Below, in pieces: positions 1,258 through 61,807 of a stretch of DNA of 64,000 bases. This DNA is from Dehalococcoidia bacterium (lineage in GTDB: Bacteria; Chloroflexota; Dehalococcoidia; Dehalococcoidales; Fen-1064), in assembly GCA_011170375.1 (NCBI GenBank), contig DUEV01000013.1, positions 6,662 to 70,661 of the forward strand, written 5' to 3'. Within the stretch, counting starts at the first letter, position 1, and each line of letters opens with the position of its first letter. A model generated the notes under the pieces. That model saw nothing but the letters and a program-made list of their open reading frames with translations, did no database searches and was not told the DNA's origin. Both the position numbers and the translations under genes were made by a program.

Positions 1258-2028
1258 ATGACATCTCTTGATGCGAAACAAGAAGTTAGTATTAATTTAC
1301 CTTTACTAGTTGCTATATTATCTAGCGTAATAGTTTCAAGGGGGTTTGGTATGGAAGTGTGGCAATCAATATTAATAGGTGCTGCAACATTTGTAATATG
1401 TGCAGCGTTAGCGTGGTTATATAAAAGCAAGTTACAGATATGGTTTAAATCTCCTGAAAAATTATGTGGCATTCTATTTATTCAAGTCTTACCCAGTCAG
1501 ACAATAATTCATGAGGAAATACTGCGAGTTTCACCTGATAAAATGCCCAAGACTGTTAATATGCAGCTTTATTCTTCAGTTCAAAAACAGGTATCCGAGA
1601 TAACGATACGATTTGGCAAAAAAATGGGATACTGGGGAAAAGTATATGCCATTATATTAAACAGATTTAAGGAACAAATAGTGTTTACGTCACCTAGCCC
1701 TAATTGGTGGAGTGCTTTTAGGCTACCTACTGTGATACAAGATGATAAGACCCCACGAATTAGACGTATTATGGAAACGCATACAGGAACTGAGATTGGG
1801 ATAATGAGTGGTGTTGATAGTGATGGCAATGGGCATATTAGATTTGATGAACCTATAAAGATACCTAGAGGTAAGCCATTTGGTGCTGATGCAATCCAAA
1901 TTGATATTGAGATACTGGCAGAGAATGAATGGAACGGTGTGTTGGAATTAGTAGGCAACGTAGATGGTGTAACCCAATTTGCAATAAGAAGAGTTAAAGT
2001 TTCAAGAGAGCATGGAATAAAACGATGA
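1258..2028 (+). CDS. IS-borne hypothetical membrane-anchored protein (256 aa)
   Basis: ATG preceded by GAGAGAGGTG. Two predicted N-terminal hydrophobic helices (LPLLVAILSSVIVSRGF, ILIGAATFVICAALAWLY). The stop overlaps the transposase start (ATGA at 2025-2028). I recognised no family. Confidence 0.6.
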   Translation: MTSLDAKQEVSINLPLLVAILSSVIVSRGFGMEVWQSILIGAATFVICAALAWLYKSKLQIWFKSPEKLCGILFIQVLPSQTIIHEEILRVSPDKMPKTVNMQLYSSVQKQVSEITIRFGKKMGYWGKVYAIILNRFKEQIVFTSPSPNWWSAFRLPTVIQDDKTPRIRRIMETHTGTEIGIMSGVDSDGNGHIRFDEPIKIPRGKPFGADAIQIDIEILAENEWNGVLELVGNVDGVTQFAIRRVKVSREHGIKR

Positions 2029-2984
2029 CTGAAATTAAGTGCAAATACTGTGATTCCAAAAACGTAATCAAGTACGGCAAATACAAAGACGTGCAGTACT
2101 ACTACTGCAAGGACTGCAAGCGCAAATTCGCTGGCACTGGCAGAATACCCAAGATGCAGTATTCAACGGATAAGGTTGCTGATGCCCTCAACATGTACTA
2201 TGAAGGCATGAGTCTGAAAGAAATCAGACGTAATTTCATACAACAGCACAACGACTATATCTCTGATGTATCACCGCTAAACTGGGCTAACCGATTTTCA
2301 AAGCTGGCTATCATAGAAGCCAATAAGTACAGGCCAAATGTAGGCTCAGTTTGGGTAGCCGATGAGACTGTGATAGATATAGACGGCAAGAACATCTGGT
2401 TCTGGGACATCATAGATACCAAGACTAGATTCCTGATTGCATCTCATATGTCGTATACCCGTACTGCCAAAGACGCACAACAGTTAATGAGGCAGGCTTA
2501 CGAGCGAACGGGTAAAATACCCCGCCTGATTTACACAGACAAGCTTAGGGCTTATCTTGACGGCATAGAGCTAACCTTTGGTGCGGACACGAATCACAGG
2601 CAGGGCGGGCCATTTGATATTGAATGTAACACAAACCTCATAGAGCGTTTTCATGGAACTATCAAGTCGAGAACTAAGGTAATGCGGGGGCTTCACACAA
2701 TAGAGTCTGCTAGGCTGTTTATGGACGGCTGGCTGGTACACTACAACTTTTTCAGACCTCATATGTCCCTCAGAGACATGACGCCCGCACAGGCTGCGGG
2801 TATTAAGTTCCCGTTCCGCAACTGGAAAGACGTGATAGAGCAACCTTATGAGAGAACGTCTAGGATACCTGTTATACGTAAGGCAGGCAGGATAGCCAAG
2901 CCAAAACGGGCGAGAATAACCAAGCGCAGACCACGAATCTCGCCCCAACCAACGGCAATTTCCCAGATTAGAGGGATGAAATAA
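2025..2984 (+). CDS. IS6-family (IS240-type DDE) transposase with N-terminal zinc ribbon
   Basis: CKYCDS...CKDCKRKF zinc ribbon. DDE-region motifs WVADETVIDIDGKNIWFWDIID, IYTDKLRAY and NTNLIERFHGTIKSRTK match the IS6 pattern W-DET-G...D / TDK-Y / N-N-IER-H-K-R. Confidence 0.7.
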   Translation: MTEIKCKYCDSKNVIKYGKYKDVQYYYCKDCKRKFAGTGRIPKMQYSTDKVADALNMYYEGMSLKEIRRNFIQQHNDYISDVSPLNWANRFSKLAIIEANKYRPNVGSVWVADETVIDIDGKNIWFWDIIDTKTRFLIASHMSYTRTAKDAQQLMRQAYERTGKIPRLIYTDKLRAYLDGIELTFGADTNHRQGGPFDIECNTNLIERFHGTIKSRTKVMRGLHTIESARLFMDGWLVHYNFFRPHMSLRDMTPAQAAGIKFPFRNWKDVIEQPYERTSRIPVIRKAGRIAKPKRARITKRRPRISPQPTAISQIRGMK

Positions 2985-15982: not shown

Positions 15983-16693
15983 TTGAACGTCCAGTTCATA
16001 CTATTGATAATAGGTTCCTACCTTCTCGGTTCGGTACCGGCCGCCTATTTGGCAGTTAAATGGGCTCGTGGTGTCGACATCCGTAAGCAAGGCACCGGCA
16101 ACGTTGGCGCTGCTAACGTGCTCAGCACAGGACCCAAATGGTTGGCGGTTCCGGTAGCCCTCTTCGATATCGGTAAGGGGGCCTTCTGTGTCTGGGTAGC
16201 CCAGTTGCTTGACCTCGGTGTCGCCCAGCAGGTTACGGCCGGCCTCTGTGCTATTGTCGGTCACAACTGGCCGGTATTCCTCAGCTTTCGCGGGGGACGT
16301 GGTGTCTTTGCCTCCCTGGGGTTTATCACTATACTTTCACCACTATTGGGGTTATATACCCTGGTAATGCCGTATCTGTTTGCCCCATTCCGACTGGTCG
16401 CTTTAGGTGTATTCTTTGCCTATATTTCAGTGCCCACCCTGGCCTGGTTCCTCAGCGAACCTCTGGGCATATCAGAAAGGCTAACAGTTACACTGGGCTT
16501 CGTAGCGATGTCACTAATCGGACTTTCCAAGAGGTTGCTGGTCCCGAGGTCTGCTCTCGGTAAATCGCTACCGCTTGGTGAGTTGGTGATTAATCGATTG
16601 CTTTTCGACCGTGACATTGCTGACCGTAAAGTCTGGGTATACCGGTCCTCATCATCAACAGATACAGCCAACCCACCCGCGAATGAACAGTAG
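15983..16693 (+). CDS. plsY: Glycerol-3-phosphate acyltransferase PlsY
   Basis: GSYLLGSVPAAYL...GTGNVGAANV signature and multiple TM helices. TTG start. Confidence 0.85.
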   Translation: MNVQFILLIIGSYLLGSVPAAYLAVKWARGVDIRKQGTGNVGAANVLSTGPKWLAVPVALFDIGKGAFCVWVAQLLDLGVAQQVTAGLCAIVGHNWPVFLSFRGGRGVFASLGFITILSPLLGLYTLVMPYLFAPFRLVALGVFFAYISVPTLAWFLSEPLGISERLTVTLGFVAMSLIGLSKRLLVPRSALGKSLPLGELVINRLLFDRDIADRKVWVYRSSSSTDTANPPANEQ

Positions 16694-46076: not shown

Positions 46077-46105
46077 TTGACAGCCTATGGTCCAAGTGCT
46101 ATCGT
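46077..46105 (+). promoter_or_regulatory. Candidate promoter of the LRR gene
   Basis: TTGACA (46077-46082), 17-nt spacer, TATCGT (46100-46105). Confidence 0.4.
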
Positions 46106-46128
46106 TTGCGTACTACAGACGTATAGCA

Positions 46129-47424
46129 ATGGTCATCAACAGACGATACACAATGCGGCTGGTAAATATTACTTTAATAACAGTACTCCTTTCCCTAGTA
46201 AGCAGTGTGCCCCTGGCTTGCGGCCCTGAAGTGGTCAATTTCCCCGACACAAATCTCGAAGCAGTCATCAGGGAGGCTATTAACAAGCCCGAGGGTGCCA
46301 TCCTTACTTCAGACCTCGAAGGACTAACAGAAATCGAAGCTGAGCACAGAGAAATCACCGACCTTACTGGTCTGGAATATTGTGATAACCTTATGGTGCT
46401 TTGGCTTAATGGCAACCAGATAAGTGATGTCTCACCACTGGTTTCACTAACTGACCTGACCTGGCTGAACTTGAATGGTAACCAGGTAAGTGACATCTCT
46501 CCCCTGCTCTCGCTGGCCGAACTAAAGACGCTGTATCTTATGGATAATCCCTTAAGCAGCACCTCGTTAGAGGTCTATGTCCCCCAGCTTGAAGAGAGAG
46601 GCGTACTCGTTGTGTGTGCTCCCAGAGAGGTGCAAATCCCCGACCCTGAGCTTGAGGCAGCTATCAGGGATGAACTAGACAAGCCCGAAGGAGTCTTGCT
46701 CTCTACAGACCTTGAAGGGATTATTGGGCTTGAGATTAACTATTATGACCCATATAGTGATATTACCAACCTTACAGGATTAGAGTATTGTGTTAACCTA
46801 ACAGGGCTATGGCTCGAGACTGCCCAGGTGAGCGACCTCTCACCTCTGGCTTCAATAAACAACCTTGAAACACTGGTGCTCGGTTATAACCAGATAAGCG
46901 ACCTCTCACCTCTGGCTTCACTGCCTAATCTCACATCTCTACAACTCTATGACAATCAGATAAACCACCTCTCGCCTCTAGCTTCCCTGACTAATCTGAA
47001 CTGGCTAGGCCTGAATGATAATCAGATAAGCGACGTCTCACCTTTATCCCGCTTAACCAATATCACCACCCTCATGCTTATGGGTAACCAAATAACTGAT
47101 ATTTCACCTCTGGCTTCGTTGACTAACCTTGATCGCCTATTCCTTGGGGAGAACCAGATAACCGACATCTCACCTCTGTCCTCGTTGACTAACCTCCACA
47201 GCCTATATCTTGGGGGGAATGAGATAACGGATGTTTCGCCGCTGACTTCCCTGACTAACCTCGACCATCTCAACCTTGGTAACAACCAGATCAGTGATAT
47301 CTCACCTCTGGTTTCACTGATGGACCTTAGAATTCTTTATCTTCATGACAATCCATTGAGTCAAGAATCAATCGAAATCTACATACCTCAGCTTAGAGAA
47401 AGAGGGGTGTCAGTTGGCTGGTAA
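46129..47424 (+). CDS. Secreted/anchored leucine-rich-repeat protein (internalin-like 22-aa LRRs)
   Basis: N-terminal hydrophobic signal ending VPLAC. Two blocks of repeats of the form LTNLxxLxLxxNQIxDxSPL. Start uncertain (46087, 46129 or 46153); the first lies upstream of the predicted transcription start. Confidence 0.75.
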   Translation: MVINRRYTMRLVNITLITVLLSLVSSVPLACGPEVVNFPDTNLEAVIREAINKPEGAILTSDLEGLTEIEAEHREITDLTGLEYCDNLMVLWLNGNQISDVSPLVSLTDLTWLNLNGNQVSDISPLLSLAELKTLYLMDNPLSSTSLEVYVPQLEERGVLVVCAPREVQIPDPELEAAIRDELDKPEGVLLSTDLEGIIGLEINYYDPYSDITNLTGLEYCVNLTGLWLETAQVSDLSPLASINNLETLVLGYNQISDLSPLASLPNLTSLQLYDNQINHLSPLASLTNLNWLGLNDNQISDVSPLSRLTNITTLMLMGNQITDISPLASLTNLDRLFLGENQITDISPLSSLTNLHSLYLGGNEITDVSPLTSLTNLDHLNLGNNQISDISPLVSLMDLRILYLHDNPLSQESIEIYIPQLRERGVSVGW

Positions 47425-55154: not shown

Positions 55155-55994
55155 CTAACCACCAACCCTGAGAGCAACCAGTATCACCCCGGGGCCACCA
55201 TTGGCACCAAGAGCCGCCCCCATCTTCAAGACAGTAATCTTTTCCGCAGGGAAAACGGAGTCGAGCCGTGCCCTGAGTGCCTCTGCCCGCTCGGGTGCGG
55301 CGCTGTGGACAATTATCAATTCCCGGATGTTTTTTTTAGAACTCACGAAGTCGTAGAGCTGGTCCATGCCGCGGGAGACAGCGCGTACCATACCGGCACG
55401 CACAATCTCGCCATTCTGGAATGTGAGGAGAGGTTTTACATTGAGTATATTGCCGGTGGCGGCGATTGCCCGGTTGATACGCCCGCTCCTTGCCAGGTAT
55501 TTCATCGTATCGAACATACCGAGCATTTCAATCTGTCGAATAGCTTTGTGGGTCTCTTCGAGCACCTCCGGCAGGCTCTTCCCCCTCCGTGCCAGTCTGG
55601 CGGCTGCCAAGACAACCAGGGCCAGCCCACCTGAGTTAAACATGGAGTCGACGACCTCAATCGGGCACGCTGGCTCAAACATTGCTTTCGCCAGGAGGGC
55701 GGAATTATAGGTGCCACTTATCTTGGAAGATATGTGAATTGAAATTATACCGTCGGTGTTTTTTGAATACTTGGAATAGATACCTGAGAAGTCTGCTGGC
55801 GTGGGCTGAGAGGTCGCCGGATGAGGTGTGGAGCCGGTCAGCTTCTTAAAGAACTCATCACTGCTCAGGTCAACGCCATCCCGGTAAACGTCACTGCCGA
55901 AGCGGACATAGATGGGTACCACCCCGATGCCCAGCTTCTTGACTAGCTCGGGGCTGAGGTCAGCGGTGCTATCTGTGATAACTTTGACTGCCAT
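55155..55994 (-). CDS. DegV-family fatty-acid-binding protein
   Basis: VKVITDSTADLSPE...VVPIYVRFGSDVYRDGVDLSSDEFFKKL...PATSQPTPADF are canonical DegV motifs. The start lies 12 nt after the heliorhodopsin stop. Confidence 0.85.
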   Translation of the reverse strand: MAVKVITDSTADLSPELVKKLGIGVVPIYVRFGSDVYRDGVDLSSDEFFKKLTGSTPHPATSQPTPADFSGIYSKYSKNTDGIISIHISSKISGTYNSALLAKAMFEPACPIEVVDSMFNSGGLALVVLAAARLARRGKSLPEVLEETHKAIRQIEMLGMFDTMKYLARSGRINRAIAATGNILNVKPLLTFQNGEIVRAGMVRAVSRGMDQLYDFVSSKKNIRELIIVHSAAPERAEALRARLDSVFPAEKITVLKMGAALGANGGPGVILVALRVGG

Positions 55995-56006
55995 ACTTCA
56001 CCATTC

Positions 56007-56783
56007 CTAGACAGGCCGGAGGGTGCCGCCGAATACCTGCCAGGCCAGAGCCGACTTGGCTACCAGACTCAGTATGATATATGCTCTCTCACCGTAGAGG
56101 TAGTCCCTCCACCGGCCTACCTTCTTATATTGCAACACCATGTTGACCGCGAAGCTATTGAAGAACAGGAATATGGTGAAAAAGATTGCATAGACGAAAC
56201 CCGGAGGTCCTCCCGCCTCGTTACCAGACCCAATGAGGTATATCGCGATGGCAACCCAGGGAATTGCCCCGGCAAACACGCCGAACCAGTACGGTGTCCA
56301 GCTTGTCTTCTCCGTCCTCTGGTTATACAGCTCCATCAGCCACCCGAAAAGAATCATGGTCGCATTGACGGCGAAGATAAGGATAAGGCTGGCGATATCA
56401 TAGATGCCGACCAGCATGGCGATGACCACAATCATCAACGAAGCGCTCAGTGAATACTCCATCCAGCGAGCGTGATTGATGCCCTTCTCCAGATTGCGAG
56501 CATACCAGCCGAAGACACCGGGGGCTGAAATCGAGAAGTGGGCCACCGCCGATATCAGCAGGAAAGCGGCCACCATCGGCCCGATGCGGAGGTCTACGAT
56601 AGTATCATATGATGCTTCTAGTCTGCCTACCTCTGGGTTGAAAACCTGGAATGCGCTGGTAACCGGCAGCGAAAAATCGCTGCTAAGCACCAGCATGAGA
56701 ATACCCTGAACGAGGTGAAAAATACCCATGATGAGGTTGAAACGGCGAAGTCGAGGAATGGATACTCTGGTCTCTTCAGTCAT
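56007..56783 (-). CDS. Heliorhodopsin
   Basis: Full-length similarity to published heliorhodopsins, compared from memory with 48C12: GIFHLVQ, RWMEYSLSASLMIVVIA, NATMILFGW, PGFVYAIF, LFFNSFA, GERAYIILSLVAKSALAWQ (Schiff-base Lys). ATG 56781-56783 with GGAGGGAGG upstream. Confidence 0.9.
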   Translation of the reverse strand: MTEETRVSIPRLRRFNLIMGIFHLVQGILMLVLSSDFSLPVTSAFQVFNPEVGRLEASYDTIVDLRIGPMVAAFLLISAVAHFSISAPGVFGWYARNLEKGINHARWMEYSLSASLMIVVIAMLVGIYDIASLILIFAVNATMILFGWLMELYNQRTEKTSWTPYWFGVFAGAIPWVAIAIYLIGSGNEAGGPPGFVYAIFFTIFLFFNSFAVNMVLQYKKVGRWRDYLYGERAYIILSLVAKSALAWQVFGGTLRPV

Positions 56784-56829
56784 GGCAACACCTCCCTCCT
56801 GTGGTATCGACACGTCCTGGCTGTTGTAC

Positions 56830-56852
56830 TAATCTCCCGGACCGGGAGATTA
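56830..56852. promoter_or_regulatory. Perfect 23-bp palindrome upstream of the heliorhodopsin gene (operator or hairpin candidate)
   Basis: TAATCTCCCGG-A-CCGGGAGATTA lies 46 nt upstream of the HeR ATG. No T-run follows on either strand. Confidence 0.5.
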
Positions 56853-57231
56853 CCCTCCCACCTCTCAGCAGCCCGGTTCGCCGGGATGACCACAGCAGCC
56901 TTGCCGCTTCCAGACCTTTATCAGGTTATTACGCAATACGAGGTACAGTTTTCGGTAAAGCGGCATCGGTACGGACATATTGGTGAAGATAGCTCTGGCA
57001 CGCGGCATTTCCTATTTCCCCCAACACCTGCTATTTGTCCTGAATGTATAACATAACCGAAGGGTCTTTGGCAAGCTATTTTAGAGAATTTGATAGTTCG
57101 CGCCTACTGTTTAACGCTCTACCCCCGTAAGTACAGGGGGATTTGCCCCATGCCTGTTTCCTATAACACAAGCATGGTATATACTAAATAGCGCATATCT
57201 ACGCTTGACACAGAGATACTGGAACGGGGCA

Positions 57232-57885
57232 ATGAGAGTACAAACAGTACGTTCTTTTTGGCTTGCCCGCCTGTCAAGGTATCTGGCAATTTGCGGGATG
57301 CTGGCTCCGCTGGCGGCAATTGCATTTATTCTTGTCGGGGCAGCAGTGACACCGGGCTACGACCATATCAGAAATACCATAAGCGAGCTTTCCGCAGTAG
57401 GCGCACCTCACCCCGAATGGATGAATACCGGTTTCATATTATACGGTATTCTAATAATCGGCCTGTCCTTCGCCGTGAGACAACACCTTGCCCCAAGGAC
57501 CGGGACCACAATAGTCTGGCTCATGGTAATCCTTCATGGCGTGGGAGTTATTCTTACAGCGTTATTTCCCTATAACGCAGCGATAACAGAAGGGATACAC
57601 TCAATAAAAGACGCATCACACCACCTGGTATCGATTGTGGCCTGTGTGGCGTTCATAACCGGTATGCTGATAATGGCCAGGATGATCTGGGCTGAGCCCG
57701 CCTGGCGTGGCGTAACGAGGCTATCTCTGGTGGCTATAGGCATTGTCTCTATACTGTTTGTGTTCACCCTGATTCCGGTTTTCAGAGACATTGCCGGACT
57801 GCTACAACGGATTTCCGCCTTGGCTATGTTCATCTACATCGAAGCGCTATCTGTTAAGTGCTTTATACTTTCCCCCCACCGCTAG
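57232..57885 (+). CDS. DUF998-like integral membrane protein
   Basis: Six or more hydrophobic helices. TPGYDHIRNTISELSA resembles the DUF998 N-terminal motif. ATG at 57232 preferred over the track TTG at 57205. Confidence 0.5.
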   Translation: MRVQTVRSFWLARLSRYLAICGMLAPLAAIAFILVGAAVTPGYDHIRNTISELSAVGAPHPEWMNTGFILYGILIIGLSFAVRQHLAPRTGTTIVWLMVILHGVGVILTALFPYNAAITEGIHSIKDASHHLVSIVACVAFITGMLIMARMIWAEPAWRGVTRLSLVAIGIVSILFVFTLIPVFRDIAGLLQRISALAMFIYIEALSVKCFILSPHR

Positions 57886-58015: not shown

Positions 58016-61000
58016 GTGAAGTGCCCAAAGTGCCAGACAGAGAATCCAGAAGATGCCAAGTTCTGCAAAGAATGCGCACAGCCGTTAATCGCAGAGCGAG
58101 TGTGTCCACAATGCGGATACACTAATGCACTCGATAGCAAATTCTGTAATAATTGTGCCCATCCTCTAACTGAGCAGGTATCTATACCTGTTCCTGAAGC
58201 ACCCCTCTCCCCCGAACCCACTTCCTTTGCTGGTGGTCGTTATCAGGTCAAACAACTACTCGGTGAAGGCGGTAAGAAGAAGGTCTACCTCGCCCACGAT
58301 AACACTCTCGACCGCGATGTAGCCTTTGCCCTGATAAAGACCGAGAAGCTCGATGACGAAGCCCGCACCCGTATTAAGCGTGAGGCTCAAGCCATGGGCA
58401 GACTCGGTGACCATCCCAATATCGTGACTGTCTACGATTTCGGAGACCATGAGGGCCAGCCCTACATCGTCCTGCCCGTCATGTCGGGAGGTGATATCGA
58501 GGGGCTTATCGAGAAAGCACCTGAACACCGACTCCCTCTTGAGCATGTAATCGGTATTACCAAATCAGTCTGTCAGGGACTGGAGTTTGCCCATTCTAAA
58601 GGTATCATCCACCGCGACCTTAAGCCGGGTAACGTCTGGATGAGCGCTGATGGTACTGCCAAGATAGGTGACTTCGGTCTGGCGGTGGCGGTCGACCTCT
58701 CCCGCCTTACTCAGTCAGGCATGATGGTGGGCACGGTGTCCTATATGCCCCCGGAGCAGGCGATGGGCGGCAAGGTAACACCGAAAGCTGACCTCTACTC
58801 CCTGGGAGCGATGCTCTATGAGATGGTGACCGGGAGGCCACCCTTCATTGGGGACGACTCGGTGGCTATCATCGGGCAGCATATCAACACGTCAGTGGTA
58901 TCGCCCACCTGGCACCGGGCCGACCTGCCAGCAGGACTAGAGGTACTCATCCTGCAACTGCTGGAGAAAGACCCCGAGAAACGACCTAACTCTGCAGGTG
59001 ACGTCCTCAAAGCACTGGAGTCCATCGAGCAGGGTAAGGTGACCGAGTCGGTATCACAGGTAGCGACTGCCCCGGAGAGCCCACTATATAGAAAAGTCTT
59101 TGTTGGCCGTGAACCGGAACAAAAACAGCTACAGGCGGCCTTTGATGGTGCCATGTCTGGGCAGGGTGCATTGATGATGGTAGTGGGAGAGCCGGGTATC
59201 GGTAAGACTGCCCTGTGTGAGCAGCTGGCCACCTACGTAACGCTCAGAGGTGGCAAATACCTTGTCGGTCATTGCTATGAGGAAGGCTCACTGTCACTGC
59301 CCTACTTAGCCTTTGTCGAAGCGATGCGTTCCTATGTGCTGTCAAGAGAGACCAGAGACCTGAGGAAAGAGCTTGGCACCGGGGCGGCTGATGTAGCCCG
59401 CATCGTCTCCGAGGTAAGAGAGAAGCTCAAGGTAGAGCCAAGAACCCCTGAGAGCCCCGAGGAAGAGCGCTACCGGCTGTTTCAGGCTGTTACCAGCTTC
59501 CTTACCAGCGCCGCCAAAGTCCAGCCCTTACTGGTTATATTAGAAGACCTTCACGATGCCGACAAAGGCACGCTGGAGATGCTGACCCATGTATCGAGGC
59601 ATCTATCAGGTGCAAGGCTTCTGATTGTAGGAACCTACCGTGATGTCGAGGTAGACAGGACTCACCCATTATCAGCCGCTTTGGCTGAGCTAAGGCGTGT
59701 CACCACCTTTAACCGTGTCCTGCTGCGGGGCCTCAATGCCGATGAGGTGAGGCGGATGCTGGAGAGCATCGTCAGGCAGGACGTGCCCTGGGGGCTGGCC
59801 GAGGCGGTACACCGCCAGACCGAAGGTAATCCTCTCTTTGTTCAGGAGGTCGTACGCCATATCGTCGAGGAAGGTCTTATTAGTCGGGAAGGGGGACAGT
59901 GGCGGGCTGCCCGGGACACACCACTGGAGATGAGCATCCCCGAGGGGCTACGCGATGTCATTGGCAAGAGACTATCCCTGCTCAGTCCTGAGTGTAATCA
60001 GCTTCTTTCAGTAGCCTCCGTCATAGGACGCGAGTTTGCCCTGGAGACGCTGAAGACTGTGGCTGGCATCAGCGAGGATGTATTTGTTAACGCTCTCAAG
60101 GAGGCAGTACAACTATCGATACTGGAGGAGCGTTCACAGGTCGGTATCATAGCTTACCGTTTCACGCACGCTTTCTTCCGGCAGACACTGTATGAGGAGA
60201 TGATTGCCCCACAGCGACTGCAGCTACACCGGCAGGTAGCACGTGCCCTAGAAACCTTATACACCAGACGCCCTGAGGAGCATGCCGCCGAGCTTGCCGA
60301 GCACTTCTCCCAGTCTACCGACCCCGCTGACCTTACAAAGGCGGTTGAATACGGTGAGATGGCAGCCAAACGTGCTATGAACGTTTACGCCTATGGAGAG
60401 GCGGTGCGTTTGCTTGACCAGGCCCTCAAGGTGCAGAGGGTTCTAGACCCGGATGACAAGGGAAAGGTATGCGACCTGCTACTGGACCTGTGTGATGCCT
60501 TATATCTCGCTGCGGATAACAAACGCATACTTGATATAGAGGCGCCGGCGGCATTTACCCTGGCTGAGAGCCTTGGCGACAGTTCACGAGCTATCCGGGC
60601 CTGTATAATAGCAGTATATACTTATTCCACCGAACTCAGGCTTTTTACTGCTCCTCAATCAGCCGAGTGGGTGGAGCGGTTAGACCGATACGCCACGCCT
60701 GATACCACTGAGCGTGCCCTTGCTGATGTATTTCTCGGAGCTGGGAAATGCCAGACCGGTGAAGCGAGGTTGGGACACAAGCTTATGAGTCAGGCTGTTG
60801 ACCTAGCCCATCGCCTGGGTGACCAAGATACCCTGTTCATGGCTACTGGCACATTTCTCGCCAATATCGGAGCGCCACAGCATGCTGCGGAGAGGATTCG
60901 AGTAGCTGAAGAAGTCTGGTCAAGTTCACACGCTGGATTGAGTCCTATTACGATGTACCCAATGTCTTGGATAGGTGATACCTTCCTCACCATTGGGCAG

Positions 61001-61807
61001 CGGCAGCGAGCCGAGGAGGTCTGTGATGAGCTGCGGGTTTTGGCTCAGCGCGGCGGCGATATCCACCATGAAATCCTATCGGCAGCAAATGACAGTGTCC
61101 TAACTGTGATGGATGGCCGTCTTGACGAAGCTATGGATATGGCTAGACAAACACGGACTCGTGGTAAGGAAACTGGTGTAGAAGTAATCGCCAATCTTTG
61201 GGTAGGTTTTACTAGCATTAGAGTCAGTGTCTATCTTGGTATGTATCTTGAAGCCCTTGAGCGTGTGCTTCGTGGACCCCAGGCAGAATCACAACGTTGC
61301 CTAGTGCTGGCTCATCTGGTACGGAAGGAAGAGGCTTCAGAAATCCTGGAGAGACGTGTGGTGAGTCGCCCCAATATCGGTACCTTGAGAGACGAAAGTC
61401 CGACAGTACCCGACGTCCTATTCCTCGAGGCAGCCGTCCTGATAAGTCACCAGCGAGCTACCGAACTGCTACTGAACCGTTTCAGTGGTAGTGGTCTCTA
61501 CACACCGGGCTTTTGGTATACCACCTGCATCCCTCGTCATCTGGGTGGGGCAGCCGCCTTGCTGGATAGACCAGAGGAAGCCCGCCAACACTACAACGAA
61601 GCCATCAGGGTCTGCACGGAGATGAGGTTCCGTCCGGAGCTGGCCCTCACCCGATTACAGCTTGCCGAGCTGATTCTGGAGCACTACCCCGATGAGAAAT
61701 CAGACGCCTTGGAGCACCTGGACTTCGCCATCAACGAGTTCCGCGAGATGAAGATGCAACCCTCACTTGAGAGGGCGCTGAGGCACAAAGAGATATTGGG
61801 GGCGTAG
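58016..61807 (+). CDS. Multidomain Ser/Thr protein kinase: double zinc ribbon, Hanks kinase, AAA/STAND NTPase, TPR-like C-terminal region
   Basis: Zinc ribbons CPKCQ..CKEC and CPQCG..CNNC. Kinase motifs VAFALIK, HRDLKPGNV, IGDFGLA, SYMPPE. P-loop GEPGIGKT and Walker B LLVILEDLHDAD. About 650 aa of helical repeats. GTG start. Confidence 0.85.
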   Translation: MKCPKCQTENPEDAKFCKECAQPLIAERVCPQCGYTNALDSKFCNNCAHPLTEQVSIPVPEAPLSPEPTSFAGGRYQVKQLLGEGGKKKVYLAHDNTLDRDVAFALIKTEKLDDEARTRIKREAQAMGRLGDHPNIVTVYDFGDHEGQPYIVLPVMSGGDIEGLIEKAPEHRLPLEHVIGITKSVCQGLEFAHSKGIIHRDLKPGNVWMSADGTAKIGDFGLAVAVDLSRLTQSGMMVGTVSYMPPEQAMGGKVTPKADLYSLGAMLYEMVTGRPPFIGDDSVAIIGQHINTSVVSPTWHRADLPAGLEVLILQLLEKDPEKRPNSAGDVLKALESIEQGKVTESVSQVATAPESPLYRKVFVGREPEQKQLQAAFDGAMSGQGALMMVVGEPGIGKTALCEQLATYVTLRGGKYLVGHCYEEGSLSLPYLAFVEAMRSYVLSRETRDLRKELGTGAADVARIVSEVREKLKVEPRTPESPEEERYRLFQAVTSFLTSAAKVQPLLVILEDLHDADKGTLEMLTHVSRHLSGARLLIVGTYRDVEVDRTHPLSAALAELRRVTTFNRVLLRGLNADEVRRMLESIVRQDVPWGLAEAVHRQTEGNPLFVQEVVRHIVEEGLISREGGQWRAARDTPLEMSIPEGLRDVIGKRLSLLSPECNQLLSVASVIGREFALETLKTVAGISEDVFVNALKEAVQLSILEERSQVGIIAYRFTHAFFRQTLYEEMIAPQRLQLHRQVARALETLYTRRPEEHAAELAEHFSQSTDPADLTKAVEYGEMAAKRAMNVYAYGEAVRLLDQALKVQRVLDPDDKGKVCDLLLDLCDALYLAADNKRILDIEAPAAFTLAESLGDSSRAIRACIIAVYTYSTELRLFTAPQSAEWVERLDRYATPDTTERALADVFLGAGKCQTGEARLGHKLMSQAVDLAHRLGDQDTLFMATGTFLANIGAPQHAAERIRVAEEVWSSSHAGLSPITMYPMSWIGDTFLTIGQRQRAEEVCDELRVLAQRGGDIHHEILSAANDSVLTVMDGRLDEAMDMARQTRTRGKETGVEVIANLWVGFTSIRVSVYLGMYLEALERVLRGPQAESQRCLVLAHLVRKEEASEILERRVVSRPNIGTLRDESPTVPDVLFLEAAVLISHQRATELLLNRFSGSGLYTPGFWYTTCIPRHLGGAAALLDRPEEARQHYNEAIRVCTEMRFRPELALTRLQLAELILEHYPDEKSDALEHLDFAINEFREMKMQPSLERALRHKEILGA

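Follow-up and report, generated by a model that had tools for sequence, protein, structure and literature searches.

What might a heliorhodopsin do for, or with, a fatty-acid-binding protein? The question is raised by a 64,000-nucleotide (nt) stretch of a Dehalococcoidia bacterium genome (contig DUEV01000013.1; the whole stretch is called the window below), in which a heliorhodopsin (HeR) gene stands immediately upstream of a gene of the DegV family. Tests of HeR partners have so far covered just three: glutamine synthetase, class 2 CPD photolyase (via bioRxiv 10.1101/2024.05.16.594530) and the ABC transporter OmrDE (PMC11109279, 2024). An earlier interpretation of the window from its letters alone (the sequence-only reading) had named the first two of these and lacked the transporter, which was added in 2024. 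It had also considered the link between HeR and DegV uncharacterised. This does not hold, since both the neighbourhood and a lipid hypothesis are already present in Chazan et al. (bioRxiv 10.1101/2021.02.16.431466). In that paper, thousands of HeR neighbourhoods were analysed; DegV and DUF2177 proved the most characteristic neighbours, chiefly in Firmicutes and Chloroflexi, with DUF1295 frequently present as a third gene. DUF2177 and DUF1295 co-appear often though not always, and HeR is proposed to take part in light-dependent remodelling of membrane lipids. Two later papers repeat the HeR-DegV association.

The window contains a compact chromosomal string on one strand: a promoter-like site, an open reading frame (ORF) of 47 amino acids (aa), a stem-loop, HeR, 12 nt and DegV. 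It is a further instance of the published neighbourhood and no new kind of association. However, the DegV link is the strongest genomic lead on HeR function still lacking experiments, and it is sharpened here in several respects: by the definition of a mostly HeR-linked DegV subfamily, by a clade-specific change in its ligand site (Asn265), by an overlooked small-protein gene and hairpin in the HeR-DegV unit, and by a closely packed seven-gene version in a cultured species, Dehalogenimonas alkenigignens, next to a minimal three-gene version for cloning.

The HeR gene (56007..56783, minus strand) encodes 258 aa with H23, H82, the counterion E109 and the Schiff-base K243. The protein matches the Pfam model PF18761 (Heliorhodopsin) over profile positions 1-242 of 242 (E=1.4e-107, 359 bits, cut-off 26.7) and the NCBIfam equivalog NF038020 with 359.5 bits (cut-off 100). 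The top solved structures are TaHeR (6is6, E=1.9e-76) and 48C12 (6su3, E=2.7e-72), both aligned end to end, and the motifs GIFHLVQ, AVAHF, RWMEYS and SLVAKS match their His, His, Glu and Lys motifs. Both histidines are present in the alignment, and E109 and K243 are invariant among 119 aligned HeRs. The identity of the gene and its hallmark residues, as first read from the sequence, are therefore confirmed: the Heliorhodopsin and DegV profiles both match strongly, and the Lys and Glu positions align. The start is placed at the ATG at 56783, with AGGAGGGAGG just before it. A GTG at 56813 is an unlikely alternative because every close homologue is 258 aa long. Identity to TaHeR and 48C12 is about 50% by eye, from which we infer an inverted membrane topology, retinal binding and a slow photocycle without ion pumping for the window HeR. 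The C-terminus of a HeR is extracellular. An identical protein is found on metagenome contigs of the Joint Genome Institute (JGI) with its neighbours unchanged, and the nearest named relatives are uncultured Dehalococcoidia or Dehalococcoidales.

The DegV gene (55155..55994, minus strand) encodes a DegV/FakB-like fatty-acid-binding protein of 279 aa, which matches Pfam PF02645 (E=1.7e-76, 257.6 bits, cut-off 27), TIGR00762 (283 bits, cut-off 99.7) and the solved DegV of T. thermophilus (2dt8, E=7.7e-45); FakB1 and FakB2 structures are also matched. The ligand and FakA-contact residues of FakB2 were taken from PMC10848957. Six of them are kept: T61, S93, R172, R175, L184 and R199 correspond to FakB2 T61, S93, R170, R173, L181 and R202. 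The FakB carboxyl-binding network (Thr-Ser-His plus Arg: T61, S93, H264, R170) is nevertheless incomplete in the window protein. The carboxyl-binding His (H264 in S. suis FakB2) is replaced by Asn265 (codon 55200-55202, minus strand). Asn occupies this position in all 25 members of the clade (the window and 24 relatives with at least 75% identity), whereas the His is kept in all 96 other relatives, in D. alkenigignens, in loci L086 and L120, and in five solved structures. The gene had been called a canonical DegV; its family membership stands on PF02645, TIGR00762 and 2dt8, but the Asn at the carboxyl-binding position is not canonical. Compared with the FakA/FakB system of Firmicutes (PMC10848957), the window protein shares the DegV fold and family and the six residues, and plsY also lies in the window. 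It differs in being paired with a rhodopsin, in the His to Asn change, in scoring below the FakB1 cut-off and in having no FakA in the window.

The two genes are joined as TAG-gaatggtgaagt-ATG. The spacer gaatggtgaagt (55995..56006, minus strand) is 12 nt long and includes a weak Shine-Dalgarno-like GGTGA, and no terminator-like site is predicted in it or within the 3' end of HeR. The same-strand junction without a terminator, pointed out in the sequence-only reading, is thus borne out by the sequence and by the terminator scan. Because of the shared strand, the 12-nt gap and the lack of a terminator, co-transcription of HeR and DegV is very likely.

On the DegV side, the sample consisted of the 80 best DegV loci in metagenome contigs (54-88% identity), 64 of which hold enough sequence to assess. 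HeR is found on the strand of DegV in 53 of these 64. In 45 contigs it immediately precedes DegV, no more than 63 nt away (spacers of 7-63 nt); in 5 it is upstream but separated from DegV by a frameshift or one small gene, and in 3 it is downstream, beyond one membrane-protein gene. Named relatives that keep the adjacency include the complete genome CP070842.1 (locus L081), DUFD01000024.1, JBHPBM010000030.1 and D. alkenigignens KQ758903.1 (locus L173). The order and the short gap are constant while the flanks vary: MsrA precedes and a STAS-FAD oxidoreductase follows the pair in CP070842.1, FUR-FeoAB and a CoA-transferase flank it in L087, and in L086 it stands between a TspO-like gene and an epimerase-DUF1295-...-Staygreen series. 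Given the E-values and the recurrence on dozens of independent contigs, the pairing is not due to chance. Among 39 distinct HeR/DegV pairs, the pairwise identities of the two proteins correlate with r=0.67, a value reached by none of 2000 permutations; this shows co-inheritance and not contact.

The DegV-linked HeRs are only 43-95% identical to the window HeR and fall into four sequence groups, the window's group being nested among HeRs without DegV. Group C (L105-L169) is the largest of the DegV-linked groups; all its members are DegV-linked, and all 24 carry Leu at both of the His positions. The Dehalococcoidia fosmid HeR HULAa30F3, described by Chazan et al. as adjoining DegV, red-shifted and with Leu at both conserved His, would belong with group C because of the same Leu/Leu pair. 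The window HeR keeps both His and belongs to another group. The window resembles the neighbourhood of Chazan et al. in that HeR adjoins a co-oriented DegV in Chloroflexi/Dehalococcoidia, and the lipid-handling hypothesis applies alike. It differs in Asn265 and in lacking DUF2177 and DUF1295. (Gene content of the window here and below refers to Pfam scans of non-overlapping ORFs of at least 150 aa, with shadow ORFs inside longer ORFs left out.) In the 2024 survey (PMC11109279), DegV is not among the ten HeR neighbour groups.

The sequence-only reading took the unit to consist of two genes. The pair is real, but a conserved 47-aa ORF, a promoter-like site and a hairpin upstream of it had been overlooked, and the unit probably begins further upstream than HeR. 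The 300 nt 5' of HeR are about 85% identical across seven loci with differing upstream genes, with substitutions in a period of three. The small ORF (56865..57008, minus strand; 47 aa plus stop, MPRARAIFTNMSVPMPLYRKLYLVLRNNLIKVWKRQGCCGHPGEPGC) is unannotated and shows this period-3 pattern of substitutions; the gene calls of the window's own contigs and of CP070842.1 do not include it. Its predicted product has a basic helical N-terminal part, a net charge of +7 and an invariant C-terminal CCGHxGEPGC (three Cys and one His). An AlphaFold2 (AF2) model is of low confidence (pLDDT 62) and has a helix at 17-34. There is no match in Pfam (E<=10) or NCBIfam (E<=1). The family counts 287 clusters at the 90% identity level and 347 at the 50% level, and an exhaustive profile search returned small proteins throughout and no informative fusions; the matches with a named source are from Dehalococcoidia or Chloroflexota without exception. 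Homologues precede HeR in 12 of 13 loci of the window's HeR group and in 8 of 26 of the distant Leu/Leu group. Starting from the peptide, seven independent contexts were found, four of which include HeR; in the others the ORF follows a Na+/H+ antiporter, a PF1765-like gene or a copper-type P-type ATPase. The 47-aa ORF was not found in the available text of Chazan et al.; it has no Pfam model and is therefore invisible to a Pfam-based neighbour analysis.

The 47-aa protein resembles Znf-HeR (Bulzu et al., bioRxiv 10.1101/2021.02.01.429150) in being a small Cys-rich, probably metal-binding module at the cytoplasmic N-terminal side of HeR. In contrast to the fused CxxC zinc ribbon described there, it is a separate CCGHxGEPGC protein that can be encoded apart from HeR, as in the case of the ORF behind the gene of the copper-type ATPase. 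This likeness is no more than a lead.

Upstream of the small ORF lies a promoter-like site (57045..57074, minus strand), marked by its conservation: TTGCCA (57074-57069), an 18-nt spacer ending in TGT, and TATACA (57050-57045). GCTTGCCAA and TTATGTTATA are invariant in seven loci with differing upstream genes (DUF998, MsrA, FUR). A consensus promoter scan did not flag the site because the final base of the -10 hexamer is not T. This putative promoter would drive the small ORF, HeR and DegV, pointing to a single transcript for all three, with its start before the small ORF. An intercistronic stem-loop separates the small ORF from HeR, TAATCTCCCGG-T-CCGGGAGATTA (56830..56852, minus strand). Its stem core (TCTCCCGG...GGGAGA) is unchanged within the window's clade, and in distant HeR groups a hairpin of other sequence occupies the equivalent place, with compensatory changes in 3 of 5 consensus pairs. 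No U-tract follows, so the hairpin is not a canonical intrinsic terminator. Rfam gave no match at E<=1 for the stretch that starts in the 5' end of DegV and takes in HeR, the small ORF and the DUF998 intergenic region.

Beyond this minimal form, the pair is found in larger clusters. In the cultured D. alkenigignens, the order is FUR-cupin-DUF2177-HeR-DegV-179 aa-DUF1295-47 aa-disulfide reductase, with gaps of 1-59 nt. The seven-gene string from DUF2177 to the Pyr_redox disulfide reductase, including a 47-aa peptide, spans positions 604-5673 of L173 and is a possible experimental model. The 179-aa product belongs to a multi-pass membrane protein of about 178 aa without a Pfam model (L156:4098-4631, L173:2663-3202, L086:4686-5222), which immediately follows DegV in 58 of 70 assessable DegV-side contigs, some of them lacking HeR, and is more tightly coupled to DegV than HeR is. 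DUF2177 and DUF1295 are present in the D. alkenigignens and L086 clusters; neither they nor TspO-like, Staygreen or the ~178-aa membrane protein have matches in the 64-kb window. Bacterial Staygreen (Mg-dechelatase-like) homologues lie a few genes 3' of HeR/DegV in L086 (5654-6115), L176 (5443-5904) and 14 DegV-side loci and, together with the TspO-like gene, hint at tetrapyrrole handling. In CP070842.1, a STAS-domain protein and a 475-aa FAD/amino-oxidase-type oxidoreductase follow DegV on the same strand (L081:6916-9436); these are missing at that place in the window.

Oxidative-stress genes occur beside or inside the clusters: MsrA, MsrB, AhpC/TSA, Fe/Mn-SOD, FUR and a desulfoferrodoxin N-domain protein. 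Some of them stand between or flank HeR and DegV, namely AhpC/TSA in L149 and L162, Fe/Mn SOD in L169, MsrB with DUF3243 in L165, and MsrA in L081.

The explanation that we favour, tentatively and at somewhat less than an even chance, is that HeR touches DegV and makes its exchange of acyl chains light-dependent, in a context of photo-oxidative stress and from a single transcript. HeRs do not pump ions and have a long-lived photo-intermediate, and this one would act as a light sensor. Once illuminated, it would engage DegV on the cytoplasmic side of the membrane; binding is proposed because the three tested HeRs bind the product of an operon neighbour and alter its activity in light. The contact would change the pick-up or release of acyl chains by DegV and thereby the supply of fatty acids, free or damaged, to the acyl-phosphate/PlsY phospholipid route. 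In a strict anaerobe, light may be a proxy for the oxic surface, and the output would therefore be repair or remodelling of membrane lipids under photo-oxidative stress. The Cys/His-rich small protein may supply a redox or metal input. If there is such a light-dependent effect on fatty-acid handling, HeR would have a role in the membrane homeostasis of monoderm anaerobes.

This explanation is supported by the identities of the genes, the 12-nt gap, the order kept amid changing flanks, the linkage in 53 of 64 contigs and the correlation of r=0.67. It is also supported by plsY, the acyl-phosphate acyltransferase gene in the window (15983-16693), by the FakB ligand and FakA-contact positions, kept except for the His, by the oxidative-stress genes around the clusters and by the precedents of HeRs that regulate operon partners. 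As with glutamine synthetase, photolyase and OmrDE, HeR would share an operon with a protein that it could modulate by light-dependent binding. Unlike those, the partner here is a soluble lipid-binding protein and not an enzyme or transporter.

Several observations weigh against it. First, HeR evidently gets by without DegV. One genome per species was scanned, and the 80 best HeR loci (57-90% identity; Chloroflexota, Actinomycetota, Patescibacteria and others) were taken with 6 kb of flanks, which were searched with a hidden Markov model built from 121 DegV relatives. DegV was found within 6 kb in only one of these 80 most similar loci, L001, which is the closest (90% identity). Even a permissive run (E<=10, filters off) found DegV in L001 alone, refuting the notion that HeRs of this type generally have a DegV. 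Second, the DegV subfamily is without HeR in 11 of the 64 contigs. At L108, where DegV is without HeR, no ORF in the 1.5 kb before DegV is larger than that of a protein with a B12-binding domain, which runs on the other strand. Third, the clusters L098:2684-4349 and L086:344-2811 are near-identical, sharing an 88%-identical TspO/MBR-like membrane protein of 261 aa and DegV. HeR is located between these two genes in L086 and is absent from L098, so that its presence varies between otherwise matching clusters. Fourth, the window DegV scores 133.5 bits against the FakB1 equivalog NF038249, far under the cut-off of 350, and for this reason we do not file it as FakB; it is a member of the DegV family with probable acyl-chain binding, not a proven FakB. 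Because the carboxyl-binding His is Asn in this clade, its ligand or chemistry may also differ from that of FakB, and no FakA (Dak2-type) was found in the window. Fifth, no experiment on HeR-DegV contact or its light dependence was found in the literature searched. Finally, light may be rare for these organisms, since D. alkenigignens, the one cultured relative found, is a groundwater anaerobe and the names of some related contigs point to sediment as the sample.

The adjacency envisaged by the sequence-only reading holds for most relatives of this DegV but, once the immediate clade is set aside, for hardly any of the nearest HeRs. The DegV subfamily is largely HeR-associated, while HeRs are promiscuous. 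We did not find this asymmetry stated in the available text of the literature searched.

The variable presence of HeR leads to the alternative that HeR and DegV are merely regulated together, as members of a co-transcribed light or oxidative-stress regulon, and serve separate processes without contact. The clusters are mosaic, with AhpC or SOD inserted between HeR and DegV in some contigs, HeR can be missing from an otherwise identical cluster, and HeR neighbourhoods are highly diverse. However, the direct HeR to DegV order with gaps of 7-63 nt is kept down to about 50% HeR identity and amid unrelated flanks, and all HeR operon partners tested so far are physical partners. Shared regulation alone is accordingly possible but rather unlikely.

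In another, still less probable scheme, the locus would represent a Dehalococcoidia module not described before, here in its minimal form. Its 47-aa protein would be a redox or metal sensor acting with HeR; its dedicated DegV, having Asn at the carboxyl-binding position, would carry a cargo that is not a plain fatty acid (an oxidised lipid or a retinoid, for example), and the whole would provide lipid repair or chromophore supply gated by light plus redox state. Fuller versions would add the ~178-aa membrane protein, DUF1295, DUF2177 and the disulfide reductase.

The asymmetry itself would fit an accessory role for DegV, since the DegV subfamily is mostly HeR-linked and most HeRs are without DegV. 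In such a case DegV would serve HeR by supplying its lateral opening with a hydrophobic ligand (retinal, a retinoid or a lipid cofactor) taken up outside or out of the membrane, and HeR would exert no control over DegV. The sequence-only reading had seen no retinal or carotenoid gene in the window, and crtB, crtI, crtY and blh were indeed not found there by the Pfam scans. According to Chazan et al., genomes with HeR seldom contain blh, and lipids are seen in HeR crystal structures at the opening close to the beta-ionone ring. The change from His to Asn would suit a head group other than a carboxylate. On the other hand, the characterised DegV/FakB ligands are all fatty acids, and T61, S93 and R172 are kept; the His is kept in the other DegV-linked HeR groups, and most HeRs function without DegV nearby. 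A carrier role of this kind is therefore doubtful, a little more so than the module just described. Least probable of all is the enzymatic version of the hypothesis of Chazan et al. (bioRxiv 10.1101/2021.02.16.431466), in which HeR would be a light-driven lipid-modifying enzyme with DegV handing over the substrate or removing the product: larger clusters do hold DUF1295/steroid-reductase-like, 3beta-HSD/epimerase and DUF2177 genes and the ~178-aa membrane protein by DegV, but these extra lipid genes are absent from the window, tested HeRs behave as regulators, and the available text of the literature searched gives no catalytic activity for any HeR.

The remainder of the window is an ordinary chromosomal stretch with recA-recX-rny, a beta-oxidation cluster, the S10-spc-alpha ribosomal operons, fusA and a large Ser/Thr-kinase/AAA/TPR protein. 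Divergent from the HeR-DegV operon lies a gene for a DUF998 membrane protein (57205-57885, plus strand). The window's contigs, CP070842.1 and L088 share this upstream neighbour; L086 and L087 do not. Next to it, the large protein (58016-61807, plus strand; 1263 aa) combines a double zinc ribbon, a Ser/Thr kinase, an AAA_16 ATPase and TPR repeats. Farther away, the window also contains a DDE/rve transposase ORF (2025-2984, plus strand) and a gene for a leucine-rich-repeat protein of 445 aa (46087-47424, plus strand).

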